DNA from: Chiloscyllium plagiosum
Lineage: Eukaryota
Reading direction: 5' to 3'
DNA: 64,000 nucleotides
Assembly: GCF_004010195.1 (NCBI RefSeq)
Contig: NC_057739.1
Location: 7,297,992-7,361,991 of the forward strand
A model generated the notes under the pieces. That model was given only the letters and a program-made list of their open reading frames with translations. It did no database searches and was not told the origin of the DNA. A program made the translations under genes and the position numbers. Shown here piece by piece: positions 1 to 59,150 of this stretch; position 1 is the first letter of the stretch; each line of letters starts with the position of its first letter.

Positions 1-270
1 TCCTGACCTCTCCGCCCCCACCCCACTCCGGCCTATCTCCCTCACCTTGACCTCCTTCCACCTATCGCATTTCCAACGCCCCTCCCCCAAGTCCCTCCTC
101 CCTACCTTTTATCTTCGCCTGCTGGGCACACTTTCCTCATTCCTGAAGAAGGGCTTATGCCCGAAACGTCGATTCTCCTGGTTCCCTGGATGCTGCCTGA
201 CCTGCTGCGCTTTTCCAGCAACACATTTTCAGCTCTGATCTCCAGCATCTGCAGTCCTCACTTTCTCCTG
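1..270 (+). mobile_element. Penelope-like element terminal repeat (family A) with hammerhead motif
   Basis: Contains CCTGAAGAAGGGCTTATGCCCGAAACGTCGATTCTCCTG...GATGCTGCCTGACCTGCTG...TCCAGCATCTGCAGTCCTCACT. The same repeat adjoins PLE endonuclease-region remnants at 13829-14420. Confidence 0.8.
139..174 (+). ncRNA. Minimal type I hammerhead ribozyme motif, intact core
   Basis: CTGAAGA (143-149), extra A, stem II GGGC-TTAT-GCCC, GAAA (163-166), CG, TC (predicted cleavage after 170). Stem I is short and imperfect; stem III is reduced to the palindrome ACGT. Confidence 0.7.
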
Positions 271-529
271 GGAAAAGCTAGAATAAGAGTAACTGTTTCA
301 ATGTCAGGGTCACCCATTTAAAACTGGGACGAGGTGAATATTGTTCTCTCAGAAGTTCATACATTTTTGGAACACGCTTCCTGAAAAGGTGCGGAAGAAC
401 AGTCTTGAATATCTTGAAATATATATCGATGCTTCCATTCTAACTATTTGAATTTGGTATTAGCTGTTGGTTTCCCAATAACAGCCCTTCTTTGGGGTAC
501 AGTCATGAGCGCCACACAATCTTTAATGC

Positions 530-770
530 TTATTAGAAGCTGCTATTGTACATGAATGATTTTATGGCCAATCTTTTTAAGTACAGTCACTGTTGTACTG
601 TGGAAAAATGTAGCATTTATTAATCGAACACAGTCCCACAAACAGCAATGAGATAATTCCGCAGGTAATTTGTTTTAGCAGCTCAGAAACAAGTTCTCAG
701 AGTACAGACTGCGGAGAATACTTCTATTCTACTTTTGATGCCTTGGAATCTTTTACGTCTGAAGCCTTAT
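530..770 (-). mobile_element. Degenerate Deu-domain (AmnSINE/SacSINE-like) SINE fragment
   Basis: Reverse-complement similarity to the copy at 21620-22040 (cccacaaacagcaatgagataat, gtcactgttgta). Confidence 0.5.
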
Positions 771-844
771 ACCTTTTGAATTGAAGATCACCTTTTTTAA
801 TGGTTCCACAAAGAAAGTGAGAGAAAAATGGTGCAAGTTGCTAA

Positions 845-1872
845 ATAGAGTCATGGAGATGTACAGCATGGAAACAGACCCTTCGGTCCAACCCGTCCAT
901 GCCGACCAGATATCCCAACCCAATCTCATCCCAACCCAATCTCGTCCCACCTGCCAGCACCCAGCCCATATCCCTCCAAACCCTTCCTAATCAAATACCC
1001 ATCCAAATGCCTCTTAAATGTTGCAATTGTACCAGCCTCCACCACATCCTCTGGCAGCTCATTCCATACACGTGCCACCCTCTGTGTGAAAGCGTTGCCC
1101 CTGAGGTTTCTTTTATATTTTCCCCTCTCACCCTAAACCTATGCCCTCTAGTTCTGGACTCCCCAACCCCAGGGAAAAGACTTTGTCTATTTATCCTATC
1201 CATGCCCCTCATAATTTTGTAAACCTCNNNNNNNNNNNNNNNNNNNNNNNNNNNNNNNNNNNNNNNNNNNNNNNNNNNNNNNNNNNNNNNNNNNNNNNNN
1301 NNNNNNNNNNNNNNNNNNNNNNNNNNNNNNNNNNNNNNNNNNNNNNNNNNNNNNNNNNNNNNNNNNNNNNNNNNNNNNNNNNNNNNNNNNNNNNNNNNNN
1401 NNNNNNNNNNNNNNNNNNNNNNNNNCCATTGGCTCATCTGGTCCAGATCCTGTTGTAATCTGAGGTAACCTTCTTCGCTGTCCACTACACCTCCAATTTT
1501 GGTGTCATCTGCAAACTTACTAACTGTACCTCTTATGCTCGCATCCAAATCATTTATGTAAATGACAAAAAGTAGAGGGCCCAGCACCAATCTTGTGGCA
1601 CTCCACTGGTCACAGGCCTCCAGTCTGAAAATCAACTCTCCACCACCATTCTCTGTCTTCTACCTTTGAACCAGTTCTGTATCCAAATGGCTAGTTCCCC
1701 CTGTATTCCATGAGATCTATCCTTGCTAATCAGTCTCCCATGGGGAACCTTGTCGAACACCTTACTGAAGGCCATATAGATCACATCTACTGCTCTGCCC
1801 TCATCAATCTTCTTTGTTACTTCTTCAAAAACTCAATCAAGTTTGTGAGATATGTTTTCCCACTCACAAAGC
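845..1872 (-). mobile_element. CR1-type LINE 3' fragment (RT C-terminus plus 3' UTR), spans a gap
   Basis: Minus ORF LGPLLFVIYINDLD...SKFADDTKIGG and EVYKIMRGMDR...GHRFRVRG; CR1 tail ...GGGTCTGTTTCCATGCTGTACATCTC. Confidence 0.92.
1228..1425. other. Assembly gap
   Basis: Run of N. Confidence 1.
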
Positions 1873-1884
1873 CGCAGTAGTTCT

Positions 1885-2205: not shown

Positions 2206-2487
2206 TTTTCTTTATTCTTTCAAAGGATGGAGGTATCAGGAGGGTTATGTTTCTCCTTGCCTTGCCAGGCCATTTCATAGGACAGTTAAGAATCAACTAC
2301 ATTGCTGTGCAACTGGGGTCATGTATAGAACAGGCTGGGGAAGGATGGCAGATTTCCTTTCCTCAGAAATTTCCCAAACCAGTTTTTGTAACAGTTGATC
2401 GTTCCATGGGCACTGACATTCAAATTTTCTTTATACCCTAGATTATTGAATTGAATGTCAGTTTGCTGCCTGAGCTGGAAGGTTCGT

Positions 2488-2530
2488 TTTCAGACGTTTC
2501 ATCACCATACTCGGTAACATCATCAGTGAA
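2488..2530 (-). ncRNA. Minimal hammerhead ribozyme motif (family C), antisense arm
   Basis: Reverse complement reads ttca-CTGATGA-T-GTTACC-gagtat-GGTGAT-GAAA-CG-TC-tgaa with a 4-bp stem I. Confidence 0.72.
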
Positions 2531-2554
2531 CTTCTGGTGAAGCTTCACTGGAGG

Positions 2555-2596
2555 CTCACTGATGATGTTACCTAGTATGGTGACGAAACGTCTGAA
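2555..2596 (+). ncRNA. Minimal hammerhead ribozyme motif (family C), intact core
   Basis: tca-CTGATGA-T-GTTACC-tagtat-GGTGAC-GAAA-CG-TC-tga: 6-bp stem II, 3-bp stem I, GUC site. Confidence 0.75.
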
Positions 2597-3629
2597 AACA
2601 GACCTCCCAGCTCAGTGAGCAAATTTACATTCAGAAACTCAACTAAAGCTACAAATCTTCTCAAAACTTGCTAATTTATGAATTGAATTTAAATATCACC
2701 AGCTGCCATTAGCTTGGACTTCTGCATTAGTAGCCTAGTTACATTATCAATAAGCTGCTTTCTCCTCTATTGCAGGCAGCTGAATAACAAGGGCATTTTG
2801 CATTAAATAAGGAAACACTGCTCACAAGGTGGGATCAGCCCATTTCATCACTTGCAATTATGATTTTTTTCCATTACAGCATCCAGTTTTTGTGTCAGTG
2901 ATTTCTCCCTGTTAAACCAGTCTGTTTGTAAAACATTTACTTTCTGCCAGTGCTCAAAATACACTGAGTTGCTGGGTGAAGTTGCTCATGAAGGTCCCAA
3001 CCAGAATGCAAAGGAATGTTTGATCACAGTGTTGTGGGTGGGCTGAGAAAACTCACTCCCTGGGAATAGAATAGATGGAGTCTACATATAGCTGCTGCTC
3101 CAATTGTAGGTTGCTTTTCACTTGTATTTGCTGCTGAGAGCTCATGGGGGAGTTATGGGAGAGGAGGGGATGCTGCAAGAGGGGGAGGAAAGGGGAAACT
3201 GCAATCGAAGGAAGGTGAGTATTAGCCAGGGGTAGGAGAGAGAAGAATTCTGTGGCAAAAAGGGATAAGTGAAAGCTGCAATTGGCAAGAGTGGGAGTGC
3301 GTGGATGGGGAGTAAGGCAGGCTGCAGAGTGGATAGAATAGGTGGCTGCAGTGCGATGAGGGTTTAGTTGCAAACCTAAGAACCTGGTCTGCAACAAGAC
3401 AGCTCACCACCACCACCTGAAGGGCAACTAGGGACAGGCAATAAATGTTGGCCAGCCAGCGATGCCCACATCCTGTGAATGAATATATTCTAAAAAAAGA
3501 CGAGAGAACAGTTTACAATCTGTGAACAAAGGAATACACAGCTGACAAAGAATCAGGAAGAGATGATGATTTCTTTGCAAATGAATATGGAATCTCTAGC
3601 TTAAGGCTGCATATTTTCAGGAGTTGCTA

Positions 3630-4760: not shown

Positions 4761-4765
4761 TGCTT

Positions 4766-6350
4766 AGAGTAATGCAGATGTTCAGCATGGAAACTAACCC
4801 TTTGGTCCAACTGATCCATGCCGACCAAATATCGTAACCTAATCTAGTCCCATTTGCCAGCAGTTGGCGCATATTCCCCCCCCCCCCCAAACCCTTCCTA
4901 TCCATATGCCCATCCAGATGTCTTTTAAATGTTGGAATTGTACTAGCCTCCACCACTTTCTCTGGCAGTTCATTCCATACACGCACCACTCTGTGCACAA
5001 AAAGTTGTCCCTTATACATTTTTCCGTTCTCATTCTAAAACAATGCCGTCTAGTTGTGGATTCCTCCACCCCAGGAAACAGACTTTGCATATTTACCTAT
5101 TCATTCTCCTCATGATTATATAAACCTCTATAAAGTCACCCCGATGCTCCACGGAAAACAATCTATTCAGCCTCTCCCTGTAGCTCAGATCTTCCAACCC
5201 TGGCAACATCCTTGTAAATCTTTTCTAAACCCTTTCAAGTTTCACAGCATTCTCCGATAGGAAGGGAACCAGAATTGCACACAATATTCCAAAAGTGGCC
5301 TAAGCAATGCCCTGTACAGCCACACCATGACCTCCCAACTCCTATACTCTATGCTCTGACCAATAAAGGAAAGTACAGTAAACACCTTCACTATCCTATC
5401 TACATGCAACTCCACTTTCAAGGAACTATGAACCTGCACTCCCAGGTCTCTTTGTTCAGCAACACTCCCTAGGACCTTCGCTTTAAATATATAAGTCCTT
5501 CTCTGATTTGTTTTTCCAAAATGCAGCACCTTGCATTTATCTCAATTAAACTCCATCTGCCACCCCTTGGCCCATTGGCCCATCTGATCACAATCTTGTT
5601 GTACTCTGAGGTAACCTTCTTCGCTGTCCCCTATACCACCTCTTTTGCTGCCATCTGCAAACTTACTAACTGTATCTCCTATGTTCGCTTCCAAAACATT
5701 TATATAAAATGACGAAAAGCAGTGGATCCAGCACCGATCTTTGTGGCACTCCACTGCTCACGGGCTTCCAGTCTGAAAAACAGCCTTCCACTAAAATTCC
5801 TGAAGAAGGGCCTGTGCACGAAACGTCGAATCTCCTGTTCCCTGGATGCTGCCTGACCTGCTGTGCTGTTCCAGCAATAAAGTTTCAGCCTTCCACCACA
5901 CCCTCTGCCTTCTACCTTCATGCCAGATCTGTATCTAAATGGCTGGTTCTCCCAGTATTCCATGAGATCTAACCTTGCTAACCAGTCTCCCATGAGAGAC
6001 TTTGTTGTACGCCATATTGAAGTCCACATAGATTACGTTCACCGCTTTGCCCTCATAATCCTCTTTGTTACTTCTTCAAAGAACTCAATAAATTTGAGGG
6101 ACATGATTTCCCATGCACAAAGCCATATTGACTATCCCTAATCAATCCTTGCCTTGCCAAATGTGTGTAAATCTTGTTCCTCAGGATTCCCACCAACAAC
6201 TTGTCCATGACCGATGTCAAGCTCACCAGTCGAGAGTTCCCTGCCTTTTCCTTACTGCCTTTCTTAAATAATAGCACACATTAGCTAATCTAGCAGCACC
6301 TCACCTGTGACTATCGATGATTCAAATATCTCAGCAAGGGACCCAGCAAA
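4766..6350 (-). mobile_element. CR1 LINE ORF2 RT and 3' UTR
   Basis: Minus ORFs LLFKKGSKEKAGNSRLVSLTSV..SQYGFVHGKSC, SKFADGSKRGG, LVRPLLEYCVQFW-like and VVRVWNELPEKVVEA; CR1 tail at 4766. Confidence 0.93.
5792..5885 (+). mobile_element. 94-bp PLE mini-insertion consisting essentially of a hammerhead, 11-bp TSD
   Basis: TSD cagccttccac at 5781-5791 and 5886-5896. attc-CTGAAGA-A-GGGC-ctgt-GCAC-GAAA-CG-TC-gaat gives a 4-bp stem I and one stem II mismatch. Confidence 0.85.
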
Positions 6351-7283: not shown

Positions 7284-7289
7284 GTGTGC

Positions 7290-12596: not shown

Positions 12597-13400
12597 TCAG
12601 CAAAAATAGAAGCTGCTGCAAAAACCCAGCAGGTCTGGCAGCATCAGTGAAGAGAAATCAAAGTTAACATTTTGGGTCCGGTGAACCTTCCTCAGAACTG
12701 ATAGTAGCGAGGAAAATGTTGGTTTATATGCAGAAGATAATGTGTGGGGAGGGGCTAAGGAGTAAACAATAGGTAGAGATAGAGCCCAAAGAGAGAGGAG
12801 AACAGTTGGAAAACGATCTGGCTGGGAGGGTGAATAGCTGTTAATGGAGACATTTAGTGGCGAATAACAGGTAGCGTGTGATGGCAGACTATGGCATAAC
12901 AAGGCCGGATGTGTGGCGTAGGGCTCTAGGACATGGAGGAGTTCAGACCCTAAACTTATTGAACTTGATATTGAATCCGGAGGGCTGCAGGATTCCCAAG
13001 TGGAAAATGAGGTGTTGTTCTTCCAGCTTGCTCTGAGCTTCACTGCAGCACTGCGCAAGCTTGAGACAGAGATGTTGATCAGGGAACAGGGTGGTGTGTT
13101 AAAGTGGCAGGCAACTGGAAACTCAGGATCTCCTTTGCGGGCAGAACGTAGATGTTCTGCAAAGCGCTCACCTAGTCTACTCTTCATTTCCCCAAAGTAG
13201 AGGAGGCCATCATTGTGAGCAGCAAATGCAATAGACTAGATTTTGAGAAGTGTAGGTTGTGTGCTGCTTCATCTGGAAAGTATGTTTCAGACCTTGTATA
13301 CTGAAGAGGGAGGAGGTAGATTGGCAGGGGTTACACCTTCAGCAGTTGCAGGGGAAGGTCACATGTGGCTGTGGGGGTAGACAAGGGAGGGGAGGGGGAA
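12597..13400 (-). mobile_element. Penelope-like element (family B), GIY-YIG remnant plus terminal repeat
   Basis: Minus ORF KSRLGERFAEHLRSARKGDPEFPVACHFN. Terminal reverse complement cagttCTGAGGAaggttcaccggacccAAAATGTTaact is a decayed hammerhead. Confidence 0.85.
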
Positions 13401-13828
13401 TATGTGTCTAGTGGTGACATTTTGCTGGAGGTGGCGGCCACCTTGTTGGGTTGATGTTGGTGTTGGTGTTGAAGATATACTGGAACAACTTGACAAGGAG
13501 TACTGCTAGTTCTGAGCACAGTCTTTATCACAACACTTTACTGATATTTGAGTGTACAGCCGTTTTTTGATATTGCAATGGAAGGAATTGGAACAGCTAA
13601 ATGCAGTAGGATCTAGTGTTCATTTTCATTTAATTGAAAGGCTTGGATCAATAATTGTTATAGATTAAGTTGGAAAAGCAGATCTGAAGAGACTTTCAGC
13701 TCAGACTAGCTACAAAACTGCATCCATTATGAGGGTATTTTCATGAGCTTCATGGTCTTAAGAATACCATATTAAGACAGCATCTTGATACATAACAAAG
13801 GGTAGATGTCTTCACTTGTGTTCAGAGT

Positions 13829-15590
13829 AGAGAGTGTGGTTCTGGAAAAGCACCGCAGGTCAGGCAACATCCGAGGAGCAGCAGAGTCGACGTTTTAGCC
13901 CTAAGCCCTTCATCAGGAATGAGGCTAGTGGGCCTCTGGGGCTGAGATATATATGGGAGGGGGGTGAGGCTGGGGGGAAGGTAGCTGAGAGTGTGATAGG
14001 TAGATGAAAGTCGGGGAGAAGGTGATAGGGCAGAGAGGAGGGTGGAGCAGATAGATGGGAAGGATGATGGACAGGTGAAGAGGCCAGTGCCGGGTTGGAA
14101 AGTTGGGACAGGGATAAGGTGGGGGGAGGGGAAATGGGGAAACTGGTGAAATCCATACTGATCCTGTGTGGTTGCAGCGTCCTAAGGTGCAAGATGAGGA
14201 CTTCTTCCTCCAGGCAGGTGACTAGGTTTTAGTGATGGAGAAGGCCCAGGACCCCTGCATGTCCTTGGTGGAGTGGGAGGGGGAGTTGAAGTGTTCAGCC
14301 AGGAGGCAGTGGGGTTGGTTGTTGCAGGTGTCCCAGAGATGTTCTTTAAAATGATCTGCAAATTGGTGTCTGATCTCCCCGATGTAGAGGAGACCACATC
14401 GGGTGCAGTAGATGACATTTGTGGAAGTAGAGGTAAATATCTGTCAGAGTGGAAGGATCCTTTGGGGCCTTGGACCGAGGTGAAGGGAGTGGTGTGGGCC
14501 CAAGTTTTGCACTTTTTAGATTAGATTAGATTCCCTACAGTGTGGAAACAGGCCCTTCGGCCCAACAAATCCACACGGAATCTCCAAAGAGCAACCCAGT
14601 CAGATCCATTCCCCTGCATTCACCCCTGACTAATGCACCTAACACTATGGGCAATTTTGCATGGCCAATTCACCTGACCTGTACATCTTTGGACTGCAGG
14701 AAGAAACTGGAGCACCCAGAGGAAACCCACGCAGACACAGGGAGAATGTGCAAACTCCACACAGACAGTTGCCCGAGGCGGGAATTGAACCCGGGCCCCT
14801 GGCGATGTGAGGCAGCAGTGCTAACCACTGAGCCACTGTGCCGCCCAAAAGATTGGATTCCCTACAGCGTGGAAACAGACCCTTCAGCCCAACAAGTCCA
14901 CACCAACCCTCCGAAGAGTAACCACTCAGTCCAATTTCCCTCTGACTAATGCAACTAAGATTATGGGCAATTTAGCATGACCAATTCACCTGACCTGCAC
15001 ATCTTTGGACTTTGAAAAGAAACCTACACAGACACAGGGAGAATGTGCAAACTGCTCACAGACAGTCAGCCAAGGTGGGAATCAAACCCGGGTCCCTGGC
15101 ACTGTGAGACAGAAGTGCTAACCACTGAGCCACCGTGACGCCTAAGGGAGTCATGGAGGGAATGATCTCTCCAAAATGCTGATAGGGCTGGGGAGGGAAA
15201 TATATCCCTAGTGTAGGGATCTGTTTGTAGGTGGCAGAAGGGGTGGAGGATGATGCGATGTGTGGAGGTTGGTCAGGTGGAAGGTGAGGACCAGGGGGGT
15301 TTTGTCCTTGTTGCATTGAGAGGAATGGGGTTCAAAGGCGGAGGTGTGGGAATTGGAGGAGATGCACTGGCTGGGCAATTGCGATCTTTAAAGAAAGAGG
15401 CCATCTGGGATGTTCTATGGTGGAATTGGTCATCCTGGGAACAGATGAGGTAGAGGAATTGGGAATAATAGATGACGACATTTGTGGAAGTACAGGTAAA
15501 TTTCAGTACGGAAGGATCCTTTGGGGCTCTGATCGGTACTTTTCCAGCACCCCACACTCTAATCTCCAGAATCTGCAGTCCTCACTTTCT
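13829..15590 (-). mobile_element. Penelope-like element (family A) with short inverted terminal copy, interrupted by two HE1 SINEs
   Basis: Terminal repeat at 13829-13925 (-) and inverted remnant at 15540-15590 (+). Body has YCTRCGLLYIGE-like and DDQFHHRTSQMASFFKDRN remnants. Probable TSD ttca(c/g)ttgtgttca at 13811-13824 and 15591-15604. Confidence 0.82.
14516..15140 (-). mobile_element. Two tandem HE1 V-SINEs (14516-14848, 14850-15140)
   Basis: Each has the tRNA head (reverse complement GGCACAGTGGCTCAGTGGTTAGCACTGCTGCC), the V-domain (GTGTGGAGTTTGCACATTCTCCC) and a CR1-like tail. Confidence 0.93.
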
Positions 15591-17150: not shown

Positions 17151-20100
17151 CTATGTAGGCTAATACAGAGGACAATTAGGAGTAAGTCATACTGCTGTGG
17201 GCCTGGAATTATGTTTAGGCCCTAAAGTGTAAGGGTGGTAGGTTTTCTTCCCTAAACAGCGTTAATGACTCAGATAGATTTTTTATGACAATCCATTCCA
17301 TGGTCACCATAGCTGCTAATGACTTTTTAATTCCAGGTGCTATCTAAATTAAAATTCTGCCAACAACTGTGGGGGAGATTTGAACTTGGGTCTGGATATA
17401 TATCCAAGGGTTACTGGTTCAGTAACAAAAGAGCCATTATAATAAAAGCAAAATGCTGAGCATCAAGGTAAAAACAGAAGATGCTGGAGAAACCCAGCAG
17501 GTCTATCATTGTCTGAGGAGAGAGGAGCAAAGTAAACCTTTCAAGTCCAATACTACAGTTCTTCGGGTCCCTTACACTACCCTACCAATAAATGGACAAT
17601 GAAACAAAGTGTTAGAAAACACTGTTCATCTGTGGAGAGACACAAGAGGTTAATGTGTTGTGTCAATAACTTCTCACCCAAATTAAATCTAATGGACTAT
17701 CCTAATTTAGAATTTTAAGAAGTAGATTTCACAGAGGGGGCTGCTTCAGTTGCTACCTGGTAGGCAAGGAGTTTGTACAAAGGCACTCAACTAAAATATT
17801 TCTGGCAAGTAGCACTGATAAAAGTCAGCTTACCTTTCACAACAACCTGTGGCATTTAGCCACCGAACAATAAGCTGCTTGCTCTCTTGAGCTTGCTAAG
17901 CGTGAGCTGGTATTTTTAGACCAAGTCTTCGTCATCAGCTGATGGAGTAATTGCTAAGGGATCGTTGATGCTGTCATCGCCTAGCAACCATAGATCACCT
18001 GTAAGCATATTTAACTGCTCTGATCATTTTCTGACTTGCTCACTTTTCATGCAATCCTTAGTTTTATATATATATATCTGAGTCAATTTAAAAATATAGT
18101 TTTAAAAATCAAAAACTGATGATTGTGTATCAGTAAACTGTTTGAGTAATTTGATAATCTTTGCAGTGAAATGCTATGGAGCTCCCAGAAGCTCAGTATG
18201 TGTGTATGGTGTGACCCTGAGCCAGTTAGAAAGGCAGGTTCCATGTTCTAATCCTGCCTGATGTAGTGTTCTGATCTGGGATGCCTGTAAGAGATTTGAC
18301 TGTGGGTACTAAACATCACTGGATGACGTAAGGGTTACCAAAAATCCCCTTAGAAGGCAGGAGTTAGTGCTTGGTGTGGATGATGTCCGAGATCAGAAAC
18401 CAGGGTCAGGTGGTGCCTCCAATGAAAGAAGGATTCTCGCCAATTTGATCATGAGCTAATGCATGCAGAATGGTCACTCGGACAATGGTTTAGAGAGTAG
18501 CTGTCCTCTCTTGATCTCATTCTTTTCAAGTGAGGAGGAGGAGCAAACAAGCTCCCCAGTATTTATTTTGTTGAAGCTATATTCATCATCTGAACTTAGA
18601 CAATGAATCCTGGTGAGATAAAAATCCATGGAGTGCTTCACCACTGACTCCATCCCTGACATAATTAGCAAGGATAACTAAAAGTGCAATCAGACACTGG
18701 AAGTTAATTTGACCCTCTAGACTTGGAGAGCACTGAAGCCTCTTGTAAAGACTTTATCTGCTGCCCTAGTTGAACATAGCCAACAGGCACTGCCCAGTAA
18801 CGGTCCTGTGTGACTCAGCACAACATTGTAGTGTATTTCTCCACTCAGACATTGATAGCAAAACACCCTTCTCTGGATTAGCCTGGATGCACTGAGTGAT
18901 CACCAGATGAAACACAATTAAAAGTTTAGGAATTGACTGGCTACAAATTCAGATTTCTTAGCACTGACATTTTGGACAAAAGGGCATTGAAGGAATTTAA
19001 GAAACGATTAATTTTCCCACTTTTGACCAGCAGGATGATAAATAGGTGTACAGAGGGGAGGATTATGCAATTTAATATTCTGTTGTTAAAGTGACCCAGC
19101 CGTCTTTAATGTCACAAAGTCTACTTGGTAAATAAACACAGTGATGTCAGCATTTAATTATTCGGTATTGAAGACTTTGCAGATTGGGGAATGCTTGTAA
19201 ATTTTAGGATTAAGGTCAGAAAATCCAGCTAAATTTATTGGATTTACTTTGTTTTTGAAATAGTAACAAATTAAAACTGTTTCAGTACCTGGTCATTCAA
19301 TCATATTCATATGTGATTAAAAATTACCATTAATTGGAAATGAGTACCATTCCGGGCTGGTTTGATGCTCAGAGTTCTTTTGTTGTTGAGAGTTCCTGAT
19401 TGGAAAACATAGTATTATCTAGAGTGATATTTGCTTTTTGTTAATTTTCTTTTTGCAACTCTGCATTAATTTCCCATTGGGATGAGGGAGGCTCACATTG
19501 CAACTCCCCACCCCCCTCCTGGACACCTCAGTTGCTTGCCCTGCCTTATTTCCCAAGGGAAAGTCAAATTTTGCTCCTTCTCTGTAGCCATATCCACACA
19601 CTGAATACAGATGTTTTCTTGTACACGCTTAAGAAATTTCTGTCCGTCCAAATGAGTGTAAACCGCAAAGGACAGAGTTGAAAAAGATACATACTGCTGG
19701 TGGGACTATTAGAATTTTTCATTTAATTGTCCTTTATGAGAAACATGTTATCATTGCAAGCATAGCAGCTTGGCTGGAAAACTTGAGCAATCATCTAATT
19801 AGAACCACCTAAACCTTCAATGAGGAACCATGCAGATATTGCATTTTCTGGGGCTCTGCTAAGCTGGGATTCACTCAGTTGGTTGAAGATAGGAATGGAG
19901 ATTTACAATAATTACGGTGTTTAAATGCTAAAATTAAAAGTGAACCGCAACACTCAATCTGAAACAGGATGGAAGTTTGGTATTTTGAGGAGTAAAAGTA
20001 ATGATAAAAAGATCCAATTGATGGGGAAGTTTTTCTGTCACAGAATTACTTGAGTCTGCTCTAGGGGTCAGTTGTAGCGTCAAGGGAAGAATCTTCACCA

Positions 20101-20231
20101 CCTTAACCAATCCATTTGAGGTAGAATGTACAGCTGCATCTGGCCAGACTTGTGTAGTCCGGCACTTGCAGTACAAAATCAGATGGTTTTGTGTTCTCCA
20201 TCATTGATCCTGGGAGACACCATTTACCGCT

Positions 20232-20313
20232 GAAAATGTGTTGCTGGAAAAGCGCAGCAGGTCAGGCAGCATCCAGGGAACAGGAGAATCGACGTTTCGG
20301 GCATAAGCCCTTC
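20232..20313 (-). mobile_element. Young family-A PLE terminal fragment, truncated within the hammerhead core
   Basis: Near-identical reverse complement of about 149-230. Confidence 0.85.
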
Positions 20314-26315: not shown

Positions 26316-26964
26316 TCTTACTGGGTCGCCGCCATCTTGGATCCCCGACCCAAAACTTTAACTTTGTTTCTCGCTCCACCAAAGCTGCCTGATCTGCTGA
26401 GTATTTCTAGTAATTTTGGTCTTCATGCTTGTGAAACCATGCTTGTTGGGATCGAGGTCTCTGTTCACAATGTGGATGAAAGCTCTGTAAAGGTGTTTAG
26501 AGATTGGCGCCAGTTCTATCCTCCATCTCCTGAGCTTTCTGAAATATAACAGGACACAGTTGAACCGAAGAATTTTGAGGAAATCTTTGAAGGAGGTAGT
26601 GTTGTGAAATCTTTAGAGTAGCATAGCAATCCCTAATGTCTTACTATGCAGCAATTTTCAGGGATTTACCTTAGCTAAACTATTAAATATTACATGTTTA
26701 ATGAGATCTGATATAATACTGAAGATATCGTGGTTGATAGGCTGAATGAACCTGTTGGTTGTTTTGTGTTCATTTTTGTATGTCCATTTTTATTCATCTG
26801 TCAGGAACAGCAAGTGAATCTTTTGAATCTATCTTTACAATTTCAACTATTCTGCCACCCTCTTTAAAGCTAATCACTTCTGAATAGTTTCCAGTGTTTA
26901 CCCTTCCCTTTTGTAAATGCCAATGGCTCAATTGCCCTAGAATCCATTCAAATTTCAGATATGA

Positions 26965-35195: not shown

Positions 35196-35359
35196 AGAAT
35201 GGTTCTGGAAAAGCATAGCAGGTAAGGCAGCATCTGAGGAGCAGGAACATCGACGTTTTGGGCAAAAGCCCTTCATCAGGAATGGAGACCATCAGGAATT
35301 CCAGCACCACTCTAATCCTGACTCTGGTTTACAGCATCTGCAGTCCTCACTTTTGCCTA
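35196..35359 (-). mobile_element. Family-A PLE mini-element with partial inverted end, perfect 14-bp TSD
   Basis: TSD gagggggtggggtt at 35182-35195 and 35360-35373. Hammerhead reverse complement attcCTGATGAagggcttttgcccAAAACGTC (G12 to A). Confidence 0.87.
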
Positions 35360-35520: not shown

Positions 35521-36353
35521 CTGGATATCTGTTTGCTTGCTGAGCTAGAAGGTTTGGTTTTAGATGTTTTGTCGCCATGCTAGGTAACATAATCAGTGAG
35601 CCTCCAGATGAAGCACTGGTGGCGTGGCCCACTTTCTATTTGTGTTTAGGTTGATGATGTCATTTCCTGCTCTTTTTCTCAGGGGGTGGTAAATGGGATC
35701 CAAGTCAATGTGTTTATTGATAGAATTGGAATGCCATGCTTCTAGGAATTCTTGTGCGTGTCTCTGTTTGGCTTGTCCTGGGATGGGTATGTTGTCCCAG
35801 TCGAAGTGGTATCTTTTCTCACCTGTATGTAACCATACTCGTGAGAGTGGGTCAATTCTTTTTGTGGCTAGTTGATGTTCACGTATCCTGGTGATTAGTT
35901 TTCTGCCTGTCCAATGTAATGTTTGTTACAGTACTTACAAGGTATTTTGTAAATGACATTAGTTTTGCTTGTTGTCTGTATAGGATCTTTCAAGTTCATT
36001 AGCTGCTGTTTTAGTGTGTTGGGGGAGTTTATGGGCTACCATGATGCCAAGGGGTCTGAGTAGGCTGGCAGTCATTTCCGAGATATCTTTGATGTAGGGG
36101 AGAGTGGCTAGGGTTTCTGGAATGTGTTCTGTCTGCTTGTTGGGGTTTGTTGCTGAGGAATCAGCGGACTGTGTTCATTGGTGCCCGTTCTTTGTGAATA
36201 CACTATATGTGATTTTCCTCTGTGCTGTAGGGTGTGGTGGCTCATTGAAATAATGTTCTATTATTTCCACCACACACTGCACTGAAACGTCTAAAAAGGA
36301 ACCTTCCAGCTCAGCGAGCAAACCTTGAGCTACAAACTTGCTCAAAACTCACT
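35521..36353 (-). mobile_element. Penelope-like element (family C), GIY-YIG endonuclease remnant with inverted termini
   Basis: Reverse complement about 35970-35720 reads TNVIYKIPCKYCNKHYIGQ..GRKLITRIREHQ..FDWDN..FLEAWHSN (frameshifted). Termini match 2457-2675. Possible TSD agtagtcaggat / aataatcaggat. Confidence 0.85.
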
Positions 36354-36424: not shown

Positions 36425-36548
36425 TATGAAGGGCTTAAGCCTGAAAAGTTGACTCTCCTGCTCGGATGCTGCCTGACCTGCAGTGTTTTTCCAGTGCCAC
36501 ACTTTTCGACTCTGACTCTCCAGTGTCTGCAGTCCTCATTTTCTCCAA
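36425..36548 (+). mobile_element. Family-A PLE terminal fragment
   Basis: tgaagggcttaagcctgaaaagttgactctcctgctcggatgctgcctgacctg...ctgcagtcctca. Confidence 0.8.
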
Positions 36549-39149: not shown

Positions 39150-39830
39150 TCCACACCTTTCAGGTGATTTAGCAGTTCACCTGCACCTCACTCAATCTGG
39201 TCTACTACATTCGCTGCTGACTATGTCGTCTCCTTGACATTGGGGAAATGAAGCATAGGCCGGGTGACCGCTTTGCAGAACACCTACGTTCCATCCTCAG
39301 AAAAAGAACCTGAGCTTCCAGTTGCCTGCTGTTGTTCCCTGGCCAACATCTCCATCTCAGACTTGCTGCAGTGCTCCAGTGAATTCATTCCAATCTGGAA
39401 CAACATAATCTCATTTTCCACTTAGGGACCCTGTAAGCTTCTGGGCTCGATATAGAGTTCAGCAATTTTAGGGCTTGAGGCATCTTCTCCCAATTCCTTA
39501 CCCCCACCCCCACACACCAGACCTTGTTATCGTATGATCTGCTAGTACCCACTACCCATTGTTGGTCACTAATAGTCCCCATTAATAGCTATTCGTTCTC
39601 CTAGGCTGACAGTTATCCACTTTCTGTCCCAACTGTTCTCTCTTTGGGCTCCAGCTCCACCTATCAGTTAATCCTTACCCCCCGCTGTACCTGATCTTCT
39701 GCACAAAAAACAATTACTTACAACTACTATCAGTTCTGAGGAAGAGTTACTAGACCTGAAATGTTAATTCTGATTTCTCTCCACAGATGCTGTCAGACCT
39801 GAGCTTTTTTAGCAATTTATGTTTTTGTTA
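39150..39830 (+). mobile_element. Penelope-like element (family B) 3' part with terminal hammerhead remnant
   Basis: FTCTSLNLVYYIRC..LLDIGEMKHRPGDRFAEHLRS; terminus cagttCTGAGGAagagttactagacctGAAATGTTaatt. Homologous to 12597-13400. Confidence 0.85.
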
Positions 39831-40153: not shown

Positions 40154-40229
40154 GTGGTTACTCGACTCATTCATCTACTTGGCCAAAAAATCCTTGGTAA
40201 CCTGCAGCAAGTCAGTGGTCCATTAACAG
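40154..40229 (+). CDS. PNPLA6: Internal coding exon of PNPLA6-like gene
   Basis: Acceptor tgtgttttag|GTG and donor ACAG|gtaata; 76 nt, phase 0-1. Translates VVTRLIHLLGQKILGNLQQVSGPLT(G), the direct continuation of the previous exon (PNPLA6 VVTRLIHLLSQKILGNLQQ). Confidence 0.93.
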
Positions 40230-40299
40230 GTAATAACATTAACAACACTCGCACGTTCCCCCTACCATTATATTACATGGACAATAACTACAAGTTGAG

Positions 40300-40630: not shown

Positions 40631-42199
40631 TTTTTTCTCTGTCAGCCTTTTAGAAGTGAAGGAGGGAAACCGTTCTCCACATAATTGAAACTGCTTATCA
40701 GAGAACTGGTGACAAATAGACTTATTAACCTGAAATATTTTCGGAAAATATAAAATAAGTTTTCTTCCTCGAATTGTAAATGTACCTTCTTTTCGTCATT
40801 TGGTAGTATAGAACTTGAGTAACGCTGAAAATAAAAAGCACATTTCGTGGAGGCCTTTTGTCTTGCACTCAGATTTGCACCAATGCCAGTGTAAAGTGAA
40901 ACATCATCTTTATACTGTCTGGGCAGAGCATGCTGATTGGTTGGCAACTGGTAGATTGATAGAGATGTTGCCATGGAGAGTACACTAGTTAGATGGCGGC
41001 TAACTGGCAAGCTTTGTTTACATTTGAATTCTGACTGATGAAGGCAATGCCCTGAGGAATGAACCAGCAAATGACTATGATCTGTTTTGTTTATTTGAAA
41101 TAGGCTCAGTTTATACACATTTTTTCATTCCAAATCCTTTATATTGATACGTGTAACCTTCAGGACTTGTAAGTGCACCATGCTGCGAGCCAACTTTCAA
41201 TCTTCCATTGGTTGTCAGCATATTTATTTACAGAATGAGGATTATTTAGTGATGGGGACACACCCATAATTATGCATTATGAGAACTGGAAAATGGAAAA
41301 TTCCTGGGTTGCAAAGGGAATTCTTGGAACTAAAATGTCAAAAGATTAAAGAGAACTGGGAATGCCTGCGGTCTCCAAACATCAATGACATTGTGAAAAA
41401 TACAAGCCAAAACTTTTAAGAGAGATGAAAAGGATGGGTTTTACTGCTTTAATTGTTTGACAAACAAACAGACTTGGACAAATTGTGCTATTCATGACCT
41501 AGCAGCAGCCTCTGAATTGAATTGCTGTGGTTTTTGCAATACATACTTAGATGTGGCTGATGCTGGATGGGTTTGTAAAGAAAGGAGCTCTCTCTGTCTC
41601 TCCAATAAAGTAATTATGAATCAGAAATTTTCAACTGTCAGGATTCCTAACTGTTTCCTAGCTAAATCTGAAATGTGGCCAAAGATTTTCTGTTGCTATT
41701 CAACCAATATCTCTGTAGAGTTGTGTCGAACTTAGTTATGCTTTAAGGATGTAACATTAAACTTCCCTGATGGCCTATTGGGTAAAGACACTGCTCTCTG
41801 TAACACTGAGTCACACGCAGAACATCCCGCTTTGTCTGCTGGTAACTTTGGAGCAGAGAGAGCAAATCTCATCCAGCGTTCAGCTGCTATATAGTGTTGT
41901 GTGAGATCAGGATTGGACAGTTGTAGTGCAGTAATTTCTAGCTCCATACGTGAAGAACAGTCACTTTAGAGCAGCTACCTCACACACAACTTGAATTCAG
42001 TGAGACAGAACCTTTAGAAGTGCTATAGAGTACTGGATAGTACAACATTCAGGAAGGTCCAAGTTTGGATGGTTACTGCTTCTGTAGGTTCCAGATGTAC
42101 CTTGATGGGAGCAAAAATCCCAGCACACTGTAGGTATGTCAGAATCGTGCTAACATTTTTGCTTGTCATTGCATGTGGTAATTATTTTTTCTGTGTCAG

Positions 42200-42355
42200 G
42201 TCGTAGCATTGGAATCACTCATGCACTGAGCAACAAACTGGAATCAGTGGGAAATCCTGCCAGTAATCTCGCCACTGTGGCCATTCTGCCAGTTTCTGAG
42301 GATGTTCCCATTACTGCTTTCACTCTGGAACTCCGACATGCCCTTAGTGCCATAG
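42200..42355 (+). CDS. PNPLA6: Internal coding exon of PNPLA6-like gene
   Basis: Acceptor tttttctgtgtcag|GT and donor ATAG|gtaaag; 156 nt, phase 1-1. Translates (G)[51 protein letters not shown](G). [14 protein letters not shown] matches PNPLA6 as recalled. Confidence 0.93.
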
Positions 42356-42976
42356 GTAAAGTACAACTTCAATAATACTCTTGTCTAAAAAGCTTATACT
42401 CTACACAGCACAATGCCTAGATCTGTATACAGTTTATCCACACTGTAAACTGTCTGCATTCACCCACAACACACATGTCTATAGTATTTATTTTATGTAA
42501 TTTTTGAATCAAGTTTGTGACTTTGTTAGGTCAGCAGTATTTCTGACCAGAGATTGATTTTTGTGAAAATATTCAAGTAATCTATTCTGAAACCAGTAAC
42601 AATATAGTTCAATTATGTTAGTAGAAGATGTCATTGGAAGAAATGGAGGTGGATGAAAATGGTGAGATGGAATCTTAAGCTGCAGTCAAGGCTGGGATTG
42701 TGGACTTGCAGGCTGTTTTTAATATCAATTTTGTATCAGTGTATTTGTTATCTCTTGTGCGGAACATGAGCACACTAACATATTCATAAATGGTCATTCA
42801 AACAAGAAATGTAGAACATAGACAAAATGGTAAATAAGTGCAGTGCCATCTGCACTTAATGGCAGGTGAGGCTTTCACCAGTTATCAGCATGTCAAGTTA
42901 CTGTGTGTCCTAGGGTTTAAGGCTAGAATTCAGGGTCTTGTGCTACTGCAGCTCTTTAACGGAATGAGTTGCCTGG

Positions 42977-44730: not shown

Positions 44731-46909
44731 ACCCAATCTTTGTAATCTCTTGTAAGACCCACAGCCCCTTGGGCTCTGCTAACTTTGGCCTCTTGAACAT
44801 CTCTGATTTTCCATCATTGGTGATTGTTCGCTGAGATGCTAGGCTCTGAAACTTTGATAACATTCCTGTAAAACCCCCTTATGATATTTTGCTGGAGTAG
44901 CAAAGGATACAAGTGCTCATGAAATGCAGCTGCAACACAGTGTCATGCTAGAGAGTGTGTGACTGCTACCTCTGCCAGTATTCATTATACTTCCCACGCT
45001 ATCATCACACCTATTCTCTGTTCTAGTTCACTTCTATCCCTCCCGCGCTCATCATCTGTTTGGCCTGTTTGTTGTTGGATGTGGTAGCTACTGGCTGGGC
45101 CACCATTTAATACCAATGTTTAGTTACCAAGAGGGCAGTTTAGAATTGCTGTGGGTCTGGAGTCACGTTTCGTCCAGATCAGAGGAAAGGCGAAGATTTC
45201 CTTACCTAAAGGGCATCTGTGAACCAAATGGATTTGTACAACAACCAACAGAGTTGCATGGTCGCCATTAATCCGCTTTCGATCCCAGATGTTTGTTGAA
45301 TTTAAAGTTCACCATCTAATTCAAATTCATGCCTGCAGAACATTGGCCTGGAGCTCTAGACTGCTATGACCAGTGACATTACCAGTACGCTACCACCTCC
45401 TTATAACTAAACGTTCTTCCATTGATCTTCCTGCTCTGAAGAAGGGTGCTGGATTTGCAACATTAACTCTGATTTCTCTCCAGATACTGTCAGACCTGAG
45501 TTTTCCAGCCATTTCTGCTCCAATTTCCAGCATCTGCCATTCTTTGTTTTTTTTTGTTCTTCCATTTATGCCAATATCTATGTAGAAAACCTGGTGCGAT
45601 CATGAGACCTATCAGTCCGGTGACATTGACCATCAACTGACTCTGTGATAATCTCCCATCATCAGCGTCTGGTGCATCAGACCTGCAAAATAAGTTGCTT
45701 TGCTGTTAGCAAGTGTCTAAATTCCAAGGGACTTGACATGAGCACAGAATATTTGTGAAGTCGGGCTGCAGTGGGAGAAGGGGAGTGTGGTTAATTCCCC
45801 AGGTGACTCTTATCCAGGCCCTCCTATCCCAGCACAATATAGAATCAAGGTGAGAGACTTGTGTAAGGCATCCATTCTTTCTGATGAAAAGTAACATCAC
45901 ATTACTGCACACAGATGAATCAGCCCGAATCTTGAGCGCATGCCCTTCAGGAAATACAAGGATGCAGAATGGGTTATTGTCAGGACATTTTAAAAGTCTC
46001 TACTCTGCCATACAGTATTATATAGAATGTCCTGTCAACATTGAGGGAGAGGAACTAAAGGTTGACCTCCTTTGTGCAAGAAAGGCTAAAGGGTGACTTG
46101 AATAATTGAGAAAGAAAAAGGCTTGGCAATATGTTTCTCTTTTACTCTGTGAGCTAGGATCTGGAGTGATGTACCTGGAAGGATCGTGGAAGCAGATTTA
46201 AATATTGTTATGAGAAGGAATTAGATGAATACTTGAAAGGGAAATTATTTCTGGGCTGTGGGACAAAGCAGAGGAGTGGTACTAATGGGATGGGTCTTTC
46301 AGAGAGAAAGAGAGAGAACCCAGTCATGATTTCACCTCCTGCTGTATAATGCTATGATGTAATGTAAAAGCCCTGTCACACCTCTAGATAAGATTCTATT
46401 ACAGCCATCACCTGCATCCCAACAGTGGTTTCATCGAGAAATAATTATTTGCTTATCCTTAAACTTCATGTCTAGTATAAATAATATTGCACAGGAAGCT
46501 GAAAGCCACAAAAGCAATTATTGTTGTTATTATTGTTGTCCTGAGAAGAAATTGTCATTAGAATTGGCCTTGTAGTCCCAGTGCTTGTTTATTGCTTTTT
46601 ATACGGTGGGTATCATTAATAATCAGGAGACTGGCTGACCTCCTGGTATGTGGAAATTATTTTGGAGTGTTAGGAGATGGAGTGATTGACGATAGCCATC
46701 AGGGTGTGTTCAATTTCAGCTGGAGTGCACTGATAGATTCTCACTGAGAGATGCATGCAACTAATGTTGTTTCTGAAATTTGTTTTGAGTTTCATTGTCT
46801 TTGCCTACTTTCTCCTGTTGTTAGGCAGGATGGAAACACTTGGCATTTCAACATCTATCTCCTTTTACATGGTGCATTACGAATTGATTGCTTTTATATT
46901 TCCTGTTGT

Positions 46910-54690: not shown

Positions 54691-54694
54691 TGAC

Positions 54695-54800
54695 AAAGAA
54701 GCCGAAAAGTCATATCAGACTTGAAACATTAACTCTGTTTCTATCTGCACAGTTGCTGCCAGACGTACTGAGTTTCTCCAGCATTCTCTGTGTTTGTATT
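54695..54800 (+). mobile_element. Family-B PLE terminal remnant
   Basis: cttgaaacattaactctgtttct..gctgccagacgtactgagtttctccagcatt. Similar remnants near 10265, 17460, 28965, 30850 and 45430. Confidence 0.65.
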
Positions 54801-55782: not shown

Positions 55783-55878
55783 TGGAGAAAGTGAGGACTG
55801 CTGATGCTGGAGATCAGAGTCAAGGGAGTGGTGCTGGAAAAGCACAGCAGGTCAGGCAGCATCTGAGGAGCAGGAACA
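55783..55878 (-). mobile_element. Family-A PLE terminal fragment
   Basis: ggagaaagtgaggactgctgatgctggagatcagag..ctggaaaagcacagcaggtcaggcagcatc; another copy at 56752-56815 (+). Confidence 0.8.
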
Positions 55879-55959
55879 CTTGAATATAGTCAGCAACTGA
55901 GCCTCAACAGCCATGTGCGGTAGAAAATTTCCAAGATTCATCAACCTTTAAGTGAAATC

Positions 55960-56280
55960 TTGTAGGGATAGTGATGTCCTTCTCACTAACCTACTAATCC
56001 AGAGATCCAGGTAATGTTCTGGAACGCCGGGTTTGAATCCTGCCATGGCAGGTGATGGAATTTGAATTCAGTAAAAACCTGGAATAAAGAGTCTAATGAC
56101 CATGAAACTGCTGGACGTTTAGAGAAAACCTATTTGGTTCACTAATGCTCTTCGGGAAGGAAACTGCCATCCTTTCCTGGTCTGGCCAAATGTGACTGCA
56201 AACCTACAGCTGGTTTATTGCTGAATTAGCAATGCAAGCGGACCTAGCCAGTGACCCCACATTCAGTGAATTAGAAAGAA
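55960..56280 (+). mobile_element. Second tRNA-derived SINE family
   Basis: B-box-like gggtttgaatcctgccatggcag, ggaatttgaattca, ggaaggaaactgccatcc. Related copies at about 17160-17430 (-), 33410-33680 (+), 45080-45400 (-) and 54830-55220 (+). Confidence 0.65.
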
Positions 56281-57827
56281 ATCATTTCAATTGAGTCCAA
56301 AGTGGCCAACCGTTTATTTTGGGACTGTGACCCTGTGTTCTCTGTTCCCCAGCTAGAGGGAGTCTTCTCACAGCATTACTCCTGTCGAACCCATCACAAT
56401 TTGCATTTCAATGGGATCATCTCAGCTTTCAAATAATATAGACCTTGTTGTCTTAGTTTCTGCTTGTACCTTTATCCTAAGAATCTTTCTGGAGAACTTC
56501 TGAACCTTCAAGGGTTAACGTGGCCTTACGATGGTAAGGAGATAAAACCTGCACATTGTACTCTGGTTAAGACCCTATCAGTGTAAAACCTATCATCTAT
56601 ATGTCATTGTTAAGACTTTTTCACTCTTATACATCAACCCAATAAATTATCTTTCAGACTGATAGCATTTGCTTTCCATGGAAGGTTTTTAAATCCCAAT
56701 CAATGTAAACAAAACCATAACTTCCCCATGTAATTGGTAACGTGTAAGGCAAGAACGTCGATTTCGCTGCTCGTTGGATGCTGCCTGAACTGCTGTGCTC
56801 TTCCAGCACCACTGATCCAGAAGTATACAGGGTCTGTTTAACTGAAGCAGGTACAACAGAGCTTTCTTCAAACAGCTTAATGGCTGGTTAATGTGTCTTG
56901 CATCTATGAATATTAACTGTTGTTTTTGAAATGTATTCATGTTCCAGCATATTAAAGGAAATGAAAGAAAGGATTCAGTGAATAAATGAATATTTCATTT
57001 TGAAGTAATTCAAGTGGGGAGAAAATGCAAGAATTTTTCCCCTCTGTTCTGTCAGAATCAGAATGGCAAATTATCATTTCTTTGAAAATGAACATTGATT
57101 TTGAATATCAGCATCTATCTGACCTGTGACCTTTTGTTTTTATTGCTGTTGCTTGTTTTTAAATTGTGCGTAATTACACCTTAGTTACACCTTGTGAGCA
57201 GATATTAAAAGGTTGCAATCAAGAGTTATTTAGAATTAGTTTGGCAATCAGTGTGATCATTCTGGAAACGTCAGTGCTACATTGAGAAATGAGCAGCCTG
57301 AGCAATGCCTTCGACCACAGGAATGGTCTGTCATTGCTGTGCTTTGATCATTTGTATCTGGACTTGCAGCCTTGGTTTTGAGAGTTGGTATTTCTATATT
57401 TCTCTTTTCCATCAATATTTTCACCTTTTGTGGGAGAATGTCATTGCCTGTATTCATATGGAATCCTAAAGCTTTACAACATAGAAACAGACCCTTCGAC
57501 TGGCTGAGATCAGGTTAGAGAGTCAAATCCTTTTGTGGCTTCTCCTCCTTTGGCCAACAGTGACATTCCAAGCTTATAATTTAAGGCTAATTGTTTTGTA
57601 AATGGATGAATGGAAATTGTATTGCAGTGAGAATGCTGGATTGATCATCTGCAGCTTGAAGGCTCTATTGTGTGCAATGATTCTGCGTTTATCCTTCTCC
57701 CAGTTATAGAATCTATGTCTAAAAGTACTTGCTTCAATCCTCAGGCAAGACTTTTCCCCTTACTCTATGATGAAGCTTCCCTTTATCATTGTTGTGATGT
57801 TTCATTTGATAGCAGCAATGCATTGTT

Positions 57828-59150
57828 TAGAGTCAAAGAGTTGTACAGTATGAAAACAGACTCTTTGGACCAACTCATTCATGCAGACCACATATCTTAA
57901 ATTAATCTAGTCCCATTTACCAGTATTTTGCCCATATCCTTCAACCTTTCCTATTCAAATAACCAACCAGATGGCTTTTAAATGTTGCAACTGTATCAGC
58001 CTTCACCATTTTCTCTGGCAGTTCATTCCATGCATGGACTGTCCTCTGCATGAAGAAATTATCACTTAGGTCCCTTTTAAATCTTTTCTCTCTCACTTTA
58101 AATCTAATTTTGGACTCCCCTACCCTGGGGAAAAAGACATTGGGTATTCACAATTTTATAAACCTCGATAAGGTTCTCAGCCTCCAATGCTCCAAGGTAA
58201 ATAGGCCCAGTTTTTCAGCCTTTCCCTGTAGCTCAAACCCTCCAACCCTGGCAACGTCTTTGTCAATCTTTTCTGCACCCTTTCAAGTTTCACAATGTCT
58301 TTCCTATGGCAGGAAGACCAGAATTGAATGCAGTATTCCAAAAGTGGCCTAACCAATGTCCTGTAAAGCCACAAAATGACATCCCAACTCCTATACTCAA
58401 TGTACTGACCAATAAAGGCAAGTGTACCAAATGTTGTGATCACTACCCTATCTGCCTGTGACTCCACCTTTAAGGAACTATGAACCTACACACCAAGATC
58501 TGTACCACAAGATCTCATTGTTTGGCAACACTCCCTCGGAGGCGAAAGTGAGGACTGCAGATGCTGGAGATCCGAGTCAAGATTAGAGTGGTGCTGGAAA
58601 AGCACAGCAGGTCAGGCAGCATCCGAGGAGCAGGAAAATCAATGTTTTGGGCAAAAGCCCTTCCTGGTTAAGGGCTTTTGCCCAAATCGTCGATTTTCTT
58701 GATCCTCGGATGCTGCCTGACCTGCTGTGCTTTTCCAGCACCACTCTAATCATCCTGCCCTGATTTGCCTTACCTAAATGCAACATCTCACATTTATCTA
58801 AATTAAATTCCATCTGCCACTCATCGGCCCATCTGCTCAAGGTCTTATTGTACTCTGAGGTAACTTTCTTCACTGTACACTATGCCATCAATTTTGGTAT
58901 CATCAGCAAATTTACTTATTATTCCTCCTACATTGACATCCAAAACATTTATATAAATGTCAAAAAGCAGTGGACTCAGCACCAATCCTTGCAGCACACC
59001 GCTGGTCATAACTCTCCAGTCCGAAAAACAACCCTGCACCACTACTCTCTCTGTCCTACCTTCAAGACAATTTTATGTCCAAATGGCTTGCTCTCCTAAA
59101 TTCCGTGTGATCTAACCTTGCTAACCAGTCCACCTTGTTGAATGCCTTGC
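57828..59150 (-). mobile_element. CR1 LINE 3' fragment with PLE insertion
   Basis: SGVLQGLVLSPLLFDIYIN..SKFADDTKI; LVRPLLEYCIQFWS..LERVQKR; tail at about 57830. Confidence 0.92.
58539..58752. mobile_element. Palindromic family-A PLE mini-element
   Basis: gattagagtggtgctggaaaagcacagcagg... (58581-58663) is inverted against ...cctgctgtgcttttccagcaccactctaatc (58670-58751), with loop cctggtt. Confidence 0.87.

Follow-up and report, generated by a model that had tools for sequence, protein, structure and literature searches.

The window analyzed here, i.e., the whole stretch of 64,000 nucleotides from the shark Chiloscyllium plagiosum (RefSeq assembly GCF_004010195.1, contig NC_057739.1, positions 7,297,992 to 7,361,991 of the forward strand), lies within the gene PNPLA7 and carries many short repeats with hammerhead ribozyme motifs, which derive from Penelope-like elements (PLEs). 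The best match of an exon upstream of the window is PNPLA7 of sharks and rays, and tblastn with carpet-shark PNPLA7 as query placed three coding exons inside the window (Table 1) and the coding span at -102,872 to +205,367 in window coordinates, giving a gene of 308 kb. These exons and the coding span bear out the intronic placement that a previous reading of the DNA from its letters alone (the sequence-only reading) had proposed: every hammerhead-repeat copy of the window is intronic in PNPLA7, which runs on the plus strand. We hold with good confidence that the copies are hammerhead-bearing PLE 3′ ends, mostly decayed and likely inert to the host, and that the motif likely serves the RNA of the element, the capped 5′ end of which, in the Neptune-type families, likely coincides with the hammerhead's first base.

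Profile hidden Markov models built from 78 (A), 53 (B) and 61 (C) copies of three repeat families found 22 hammerhead-bearing arms in the window, 12 of family A, six of B and four of C. All 16 coordinates listed in the sequence-only reading belong to one of these families and correspond to 17 arms, because the one at 58640 is a fold-back pair; the profile search added the arms at 17490, 26344, 36283, 55834 and 56748. Eight of the copies listed before are antisense to the host gene. A strict descriptor, which demands the core bases, a stem II of at least 3 bp, a stem I of at least 2 bp and a palindromic helix III, is matched by three of the 22 arms, 143(+), 2559(+) and 2526(-), whereas 200 dinucleotide-resampled windows contained no strict motif. 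The cleavage positions predicted earlier, 170, 2592 and 5827, had been read correctly. Among the three sense copies described as having intact cores, 143 and 2559 stand under the strict descriptor, whereas 5800 keeps its core and has a stem II broken by a G.A mismatch at the second pair. The copy at 39735 also keeps the core bases, having lost stem II and the CG palindrome, and the other 17 arms lack core bases after CpG decay that hit G12 or the CG, or after 5′ truncation, with 54715 and 20290 being without any CUGANGA. Rfam at gathering thresholds gave no match in the window, as is expected for a motif without helix III.

Table 1. Hammerhead-bearing repeat copies and other features, in window coordinates except for the three family E copies, which lie elsewhere in the genome; Neptune- and Poseidon-type are putative assignments.
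Feature	Position	Strand	Details
Young family A (Neptune-type) PLE 3′ end	1..269	+	strict-intact hammerhead 139-174, core from 143, predicted site after 170, tail to 269
Family C (Poseidon-type) inverted arm	2452..2542	-	strict-intact, core from 2526, antisense to host
Family C arm	2543..2680	+	strict-intact, core from 2559, predicted site after 2592
Family A mini-insertion without tail	5796..5889	+	begins at first base of stem I; core intact, stem II mismatch; target-site duplication of ~11 bp, within LINE reverse transcriptase fragment
Family B (Neptune-type) 5′-truncated PLE	12601..13425	-	GIY-YIG remnant 12946-13425; decayed hammerhead, core from 12695
Older family A PLE	13822..14517	-	GIY-YIG remnant 14139-14517; decayed hammerhead, core from 13916
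Family B fragment without core	17470..17551	-	
Young family A copy truncated within core	20229..20313	-	85/86 columns identical to the 143 copy
Family B fragment without core	26344..26410	+	
PNPLA7 coding exon	28201..28362	+	tblastn span, slightly wider than the exon
Family A fold-back pair	29435..29645	-/+	arms 29435-29518 (-) and 29524-29645 (+); both cores broken
Family A copy, G12 lost	35205..35286	-	
Family C 5′-truncated PLE	35523..36327	-	GIY-YIG remnant 35596-36233, decayed hammerhead directly after; short inverted arm 36283-36327
Family A copy truncated within core	36426..36538	+	
Family B 5′-truncated PLE	39152..39830	+	GIY-YIG remnant 39152-39475; core bases from 39736 kept, stem II and palindrome lost
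PNPLA7 coding exon	40160..40258	+	tblastn span
PNPLA7 coding exon	42193..42357	+	tblastn span
Old family B mini-copy, GAAA lost	45431..45517	+	
Family B fragment without CUGANGA	54714..54795	+	
Family A tail-only fragment	55792..55876	-	
Family A fragment beginning after stem II	56748..56812	+	
Family A fold-back pair	58549..58744	-/+	arms 58549-58665 (-) and 58660-58744 (+); both cores broken
Decayed LINE-type reverse transcriptase and endonuclease fragments	840-1830, 4760-7160, 47190-48130, 57820-59100		
Family E copy	L169:478-522		
Family E copy	L193:2502-2546		
Family E copy	L209:4587-4631		

The identification as minimal type I hammerheads of PLE terminal repeats, already made in the sequence-only reading, is supported by adjoining GIY-YIG sequence, by genome copies with reverse transcriptase (RT) or GIY-YIG and by the published anatomy of minimal hammerhead ribozymes (min-HHRs). 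GIY-YIG remnants lie immediately 5′ of four window copies and on the same strand, i.e., 12695(-), 13916(-), 35597(-) and 39736(+), while Pfam searches of 40 window open reading frames (ORFs) did not find GIY-YIG and gave only RT and endonuclease fragments of the long interspersed nuclear element (LINE) type. Elsewhere in the genome, a family C copy gave a Pfam RVT_1 match (E 4e-10), three of 16 genome-copy proteins gave GIY-YIG matches (E 0.0006-0.0013, below the curated Pfam cut-off), a family B copy contains an RT-like stretch with DKG and no Pfam match, and no RT was seen in the scanned family A copies. A CX4CxxC linker is present in three A/B genome copies and was not seen in two family C copies. 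According to the published criterion, Neptune elements have a CX2-5CxxC linker before the endonuclease (PMC8557442), and therefore A and B are putatively of the Neptune type and C of the Poseidon type; the assignment follows the linker, and for A and B Nematis is formally possible.

The hallmarks of endonuclease-containing (EN+) PLEs are found as well, namely 5′ truncation, an inverted arm and an optional tail of 30-40 bp. An inverted partner accompanies 44 of 70 young family A arms, and the 3′ ends fall into two clusters ~35 nt apart, near +85-94 and +121-131 when positions are numbered from the C of CUGA. As known for EN+ PLEs with an inverted pseudo-long terminal repeat (pLTR) and a one-sided tail (PMC8557442, PMC3846280), the window contains head-to-head fold-backs, at 2452-2680, 29435-29645 and 58549-58744; in contrast to the published ones, many shark fold-backs have their apex at the first bases of the hammerhead and enclose no coding sequence. 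A full-length family A element was not found, the best candidate being inverted ends that enclose an assembly gap, and 288 ATG-anchored family A copies share no sequence past the tail. At 189-269 of the window there is an ATG-started frame (MLPDLL.FSS), which the tails of A and B share apart from a synonymous difference and which may be the start of the element ORF. Furthermore, a fourth abundant hammerhead family (E), with a CAC/GUG stem I, a GC palindrome and a CUA site, is absent from the window; one of its copies (L193) has a GIY-YIG remnant ~1 kb upstream on the same strand. One family B copy elsewhere in the genome (L034:567-1178) adjoins an exon that resembles what we take to be a MICAL-type N-terminus, for which Pfam gave only weak unrelated matches.

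In the alignments of the 78, 53 and 61 copies, the majority bases form the CUGANGA...GAAA...NUH core with stem II and a short stem I. A helix III loop is missing, the palindrome 15.2-16.2 being CG in A, B and C and GC in E, and an extra base between A9 and G10.1 as well as the pair G10.1-C11.1 are present. This is like the min-HHRs of metazoan PLE pLTRs (Cervera and de la Peña, 2014; PMC4209133), which share CUGANGA, the extra base, a stem II opening with G-C, GAAA, the two palindromic bases, NUH and the short stem I, and which likewise occur mainly as solo truncated copies and opposite-strand pairs. Moreover, family A resembles the Acropora Neptune motif listed there (4-bp stem II, CG, GUC) and the subfamily C2 the listed Clonorchis motifs. 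The claim that stem differences between families A, B and C amount to covariation-like support was overstated, because the stems cannot be aligned between families. True compensatory changes appear only among the subfamilies of C, where two of nine pairs change on both sides (UA/GC/CG and UG/CG/UA) and pairing reaches 95.7%, compared with 29-47% for slid partners, in 13 copies of three subfamilies, of which 12 came from descriptor hits that favor pairing and which represent three lineages and thus few independent events. G12 is kept in 73%, 61% and 85% of the A, B and C copies (n = 80, 36 and 20), and the non-CpG core bases are kept in 89-97%; as both G12 and the CG of helix III lie within CpGs, these are lost first. 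We propose that inserted copies decay neutrally.

The 5′ ends of the copies pile up at stem I. For this count, loci found through same-family queries that span the hammerhead were left out, as were arms bordering gaps or edges, arms beginning after +30 and family A arms with <90% identity or <55 nt. Within -5 to 0 lie the 5′ ends of 35 of 70 family A arms (peak at -4), 21 of 70 B arms and 16 of 46 E arms, while only 5 of 70 family A arms begin within -50 to -6; the arms of one fold-back are non-independent in these counts, and diverged subfamilies may end the alignment early. Family C has no such peak, with 4 of 47 incidental arms ending in -6 to +1 and 33 of 47 extending beyond -50. Genome-wide, 6,402 places show family A beginning exactly at -4 with the templated C missing in front, to be compared roughly with 2,733 summed over about -6 to -17 and 935 at +8, some of the latter being substitutions. 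Position 139 of the window is such a point at which many genome copies start. Stem I opens with the base at -4, which is also the A in TCATTCC (A) or TCAGTT (B), motifs that we take to fit the initiator consensus. Two other sources of this 5′ wall were rejected. Splicing does not account for it, family A having neither an AG there nor a shared upstream exon, and cleavage would place the ends at +28, with only 1 of 70 arms in +21 to +30. We find it probable that transcription of the Neptune-type elements starts at the first base of hammerhead stem I. In a published alignment of PLE hammerheads of other animals (PMC4209133), several show, by eye, TCAGT or TCATT within ~10 nt upstream of the core, and the overlap of start site and hammerhead may extend to PLEs of these animals.

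The ends at -4 are often preceded by an extra G, a base which is reported as a capping mark in full-length L1 at its 5′ junctions (PMC11702581). In the first 100 of the 6,402 ends listed, the preceding base is G in 54, A in 24 and T in 22 cases, and the 54 of 100 at -4 stand against 17 of 100 at +8 as counted by eye (Fisher p=6e-8). The 100 ends comprise 55 fold-backs (30 with G), five tandem or longer copies (two with G) and 40 solo insertions; among the latter, two of which represent one duplicated locus, 22 have G (p=2e-4 against 27%). Five solos have a target-site duplication (TSD) that excludes the preceding base, and in all five this untemplated base is G.

Several observations weigh against a capped start at stem I. 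Family E has the same kind of pile-up without the TCAKTY motif, and the three patterns behind the genome-wide counts differ in CpG content and in the upstream filter, their totals being only roughly comparable. In 12 solos the preceding base lies inside the TSD, eight of them with G, and there the G is also in the target; 23 of the 40 solos (nine with G) have no TSD by the rule used, and in the 55 fold-backs the G may derive from the other arm. A small unselected local sample gave five ends at -4, all of them fold-backs, with two G and three A. Without a full-length element the junction of 5′ repeat and ORF is unseen. Finally, RNA reads aligned to 1-14600 (1,409 reads in one run, 78% of which continue into unlike sequence, and 0 in a second run) lend no support, with no end pile-up and zero depth on unique intron, the matching reads belonging to other repeat copies.

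With the identity of the elements unchanged, the wall at stem I could also arise by microhomology of AT-rich nicked targets with the ATT at -4, by exonuclease trimming up to a protein-bound hammerhead, or by fold-back geometry. The Anolis endonuclease prefers ATT (PMC11167929), at several solo junctions the target goes on with A or AT after the TSD, in A and E the wall follows the opening base of stem I with or without the initiator-like motif, and the ends dwindle from -4 to +5, as these routes would allow. However, no peak accompanies a second GATT at +28, ATT is missing from the wall of families B and E, and the five untemplated G of five as well as the 22 of 40 in solos are unexplained by trimming, since a trimmed 5′ end carries no cap. 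We consider these routes unlikely, though of the alternatives they fare best.

A capped start at stem I can be combined with the 3′ ends into one model, to which we give at best somewhat better than even chances. The capped transcript would begin with the base that opens stem I, and reverse transcription would prime in the tail ~90 or 125 nt downstream, as it does in vitro for the Anolis PLE. The RT would pass the uncut hammerhead, as ends at +28 are nearly absent, and then copy the cap as an extra base. Joining of the cDNA to the target would give a solo mini-insertion, and an RT turning back on its own cDNA would give a fold-back, so that capped uncut transcripts end up as mini-insertions or fold-backs of 95-130 nt; longer copies (143, 12695, 13916, 39736) would result when priming takes place at the 3′ repeat. 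Should cleavage occur, it would need a dimer and the protein of the element and would cut away the initial 32 nt together with the cap. In that case the ribozyme would act as a protein-gated switch for shedding the cap with these 32 nt, and not as a device for releasing monomers.

Parts of this model have counterparts in known systems. In PAc, the Poseidon from Anolis carolinensis (Frangieh et al., 2024; PMC11167929), the hammerhead lies just 5′ of a tail with two RT starts ~30-40 nt apart, to which the shark 3′ ends near +90 and +123/126 correspond, and in both cases the cDNA crosses the uncut site. The Anolis hammerhead cleaves only with its protein, reverse transcription mainly uses uncut RNA as its template, and RNA-seq ends were not found to map to the cleavage site. 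In contrast to PAc, the shark families A and B are putatively of the Neptune type, while the Poseidon-type family C lacks the 5′ pile-up; the PAc data are in vitro, and a transcription start is not given in the accessible text. The internal promoter of Drosophila virilis Penelope (PMC2377424) likewise has an initiator-type start in the pLTR, from which a downstream copy is transcribed, although that start lies 46 nt before a 75-nt intron ending at helix I, whereas the start proposed for the shark is helix I itself. Non-LTR retrozymes (bioRxiv 10.64898/2026.07.22.740005), the survey of which includes one cartilaginous fish, are also PLE-derived, non-coding, hammerhead-bearing repeats; they form tandem arrays, whereas the window copies are dispersed solos and fold-backs. 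The motif class, the dimer requirement and the fold-back pattern are already published, and the reading of start site and cap is what is added here. In the accessible parts of PMC4209133 no shark is listed in Table S1 and neither a 5′-end pile-up nor a cap signature is reported, and the literature searched, with most subscription journals outside its coverage, contained neither a prior report of a start-site or cap reading nor a paper on shark PLE hammerheads.

The elements are abundant. In forty 10-kb stretches taken at round coordinates from 32 large contigs (389,942 bases elsewhere in the genome), 104 arms and 26 strict motifs were found, which extrapolates to an estimated ~0.9 million arms and ~0.24 million strict motifs in the genome; the density of the window (22 arms in 63 kb) is ordinary. 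The strict estimate is far above the ~4,000 motifs of coelacanth and ~9,000 of Xenopus, which were counted with a different descriptor (PMC4209133). Two hammerhead units stand adjacent at 232 places genome-wide. The window has no tandem hammerhead pair and hence none of the tandem complete units that define a retrozyme. Among the 100 of the 232 junctions listed, most upstream units overrun the cleavage site by a few bases as judged by eye, and the short GATTCC junctions allow two readings. About 123 kb upstream of the window (L173:6900-7140), a fold-back is followed by three family A units at ~39-nt spacing, two of them strict-intact. Such adjacent tandem units would be better candidates for cis dimer cleavage than any copy of the window.

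The sequence-only reading had also suggested that intact sense copies (143, 2559, 5800) could cut the host pre-mRNA. That they do so as cis or trans dimers and thereby affect PNPLA7 expression is in our view very improbable. It is true that 143 and 2559 are strict motifs on the sense strand, that trans partners might come from an estimated ~0.2 million intact motifs genome-wide and from family A transcripts read in polyA RNA, that gene copies with any core sequence lean antisense (14 versus 8 sense, p=0.29), and that canonical hammerheads in introns are conserved across amniotes (PMC6155905). However, arms in the 308-kb gene show no strand bias (31 sense versus 39 antisense, p=0.40; strict 4 versus 5, all comparisons of low power), and published min-HHRs show no activity as monomers and low activity as dimers (PMC4209133) or need their protein (PMC11167929). 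In nearest-neighbor folding models, which ignore tertiary contacts of the core, stem II of 5800 has a pairing probability of ~0.01 or less in context, and that of 2559 falls from 0.995 without the inverted arm to 0.0 with it, 2559 being predicted to lie in a 91-bp hairpin with that arm (2452..2542). The 143 copy has a 2-bp stem I and no intact sense family A partner within the window, two free hairpins (-16.4 kcal/mol) outdo its double-hammerhead fold (-13.3) in stability, and it is able to pair with the 20229-20313 copy (-178), which, being identical in 85 of 86 columns and on the opposite strand, supplies its complement in the same intron RNA. Likewise, for three of the gene's four intact sense copies an inverted partner lies no more than ~500 nt away. 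Cleavage of PNPLA7 pre-mRNA by window copies is therefore unlikely as modeled, and the suggestion finds no support. The copies do not fit a domesticated intronic hammerhead of the RECK type, which would show a canonical fold with tertiary loops and conservation across species at the orthologous site, the fold being minimal and the copies young or decaying repeats. The near-identical sense and antisense copies at 148-233 and 20229-20313 could form long double-stranded RNA in the one intron and undergo adenosine-to-inosine editing. That the motif is a chance match or a non-ribozyme signal in an ordinary repeat resembling short interspersed nuclear elements (SINEs) is hardly credible, for although Rfam is silent, stem I has only 2-4 bp and the ribozyme status of the shark motifs was read from sequence alone, strict motifs are absent from the shuffles, PLE coding remnants adjoin copies, family C has compensatory pairs and near-identical layouts stand in the published PLE alignment (PMC4209133).

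Besides the PLE copies, the window contains other repeats. The insertions at 5800 and 58640 are located within decayed LINE-type fragments. A SINE-like repeat of ~300 nt, presumably the shark HE1 family, has many copies (14520-15150, 23590-23935, 26960-27140, 28600-28950, 30060-30325, 40300-40630, 43435-43580, 48970-49680, 62610-62860), and 53100-54700 and 50140-50900 hold two duplicated blocks of a GC-rich 32-nt minisatellite along with a pyrimidine-rich tandem array of 12-nt units that ends at an assembly gap.

The insertion ends of a very young and abundant family provide in vivo support, on the scale of a genome, for the internal priming on uncut RNA that was described in vitro. They also make the ribozyme's first base the likely start site, by which the role of PLE hammerheads becomes testable, and would explain why most genomic min-HHRs are solo stubs. 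Cleavage of host transcripts would matter more, since such motifs would be present in most long introns of sharks, but the present evidence goes against it. If the model is true, mini-insertions and fold-backs would have seeded close to a million hammerhead stubs in the genome of this shark.

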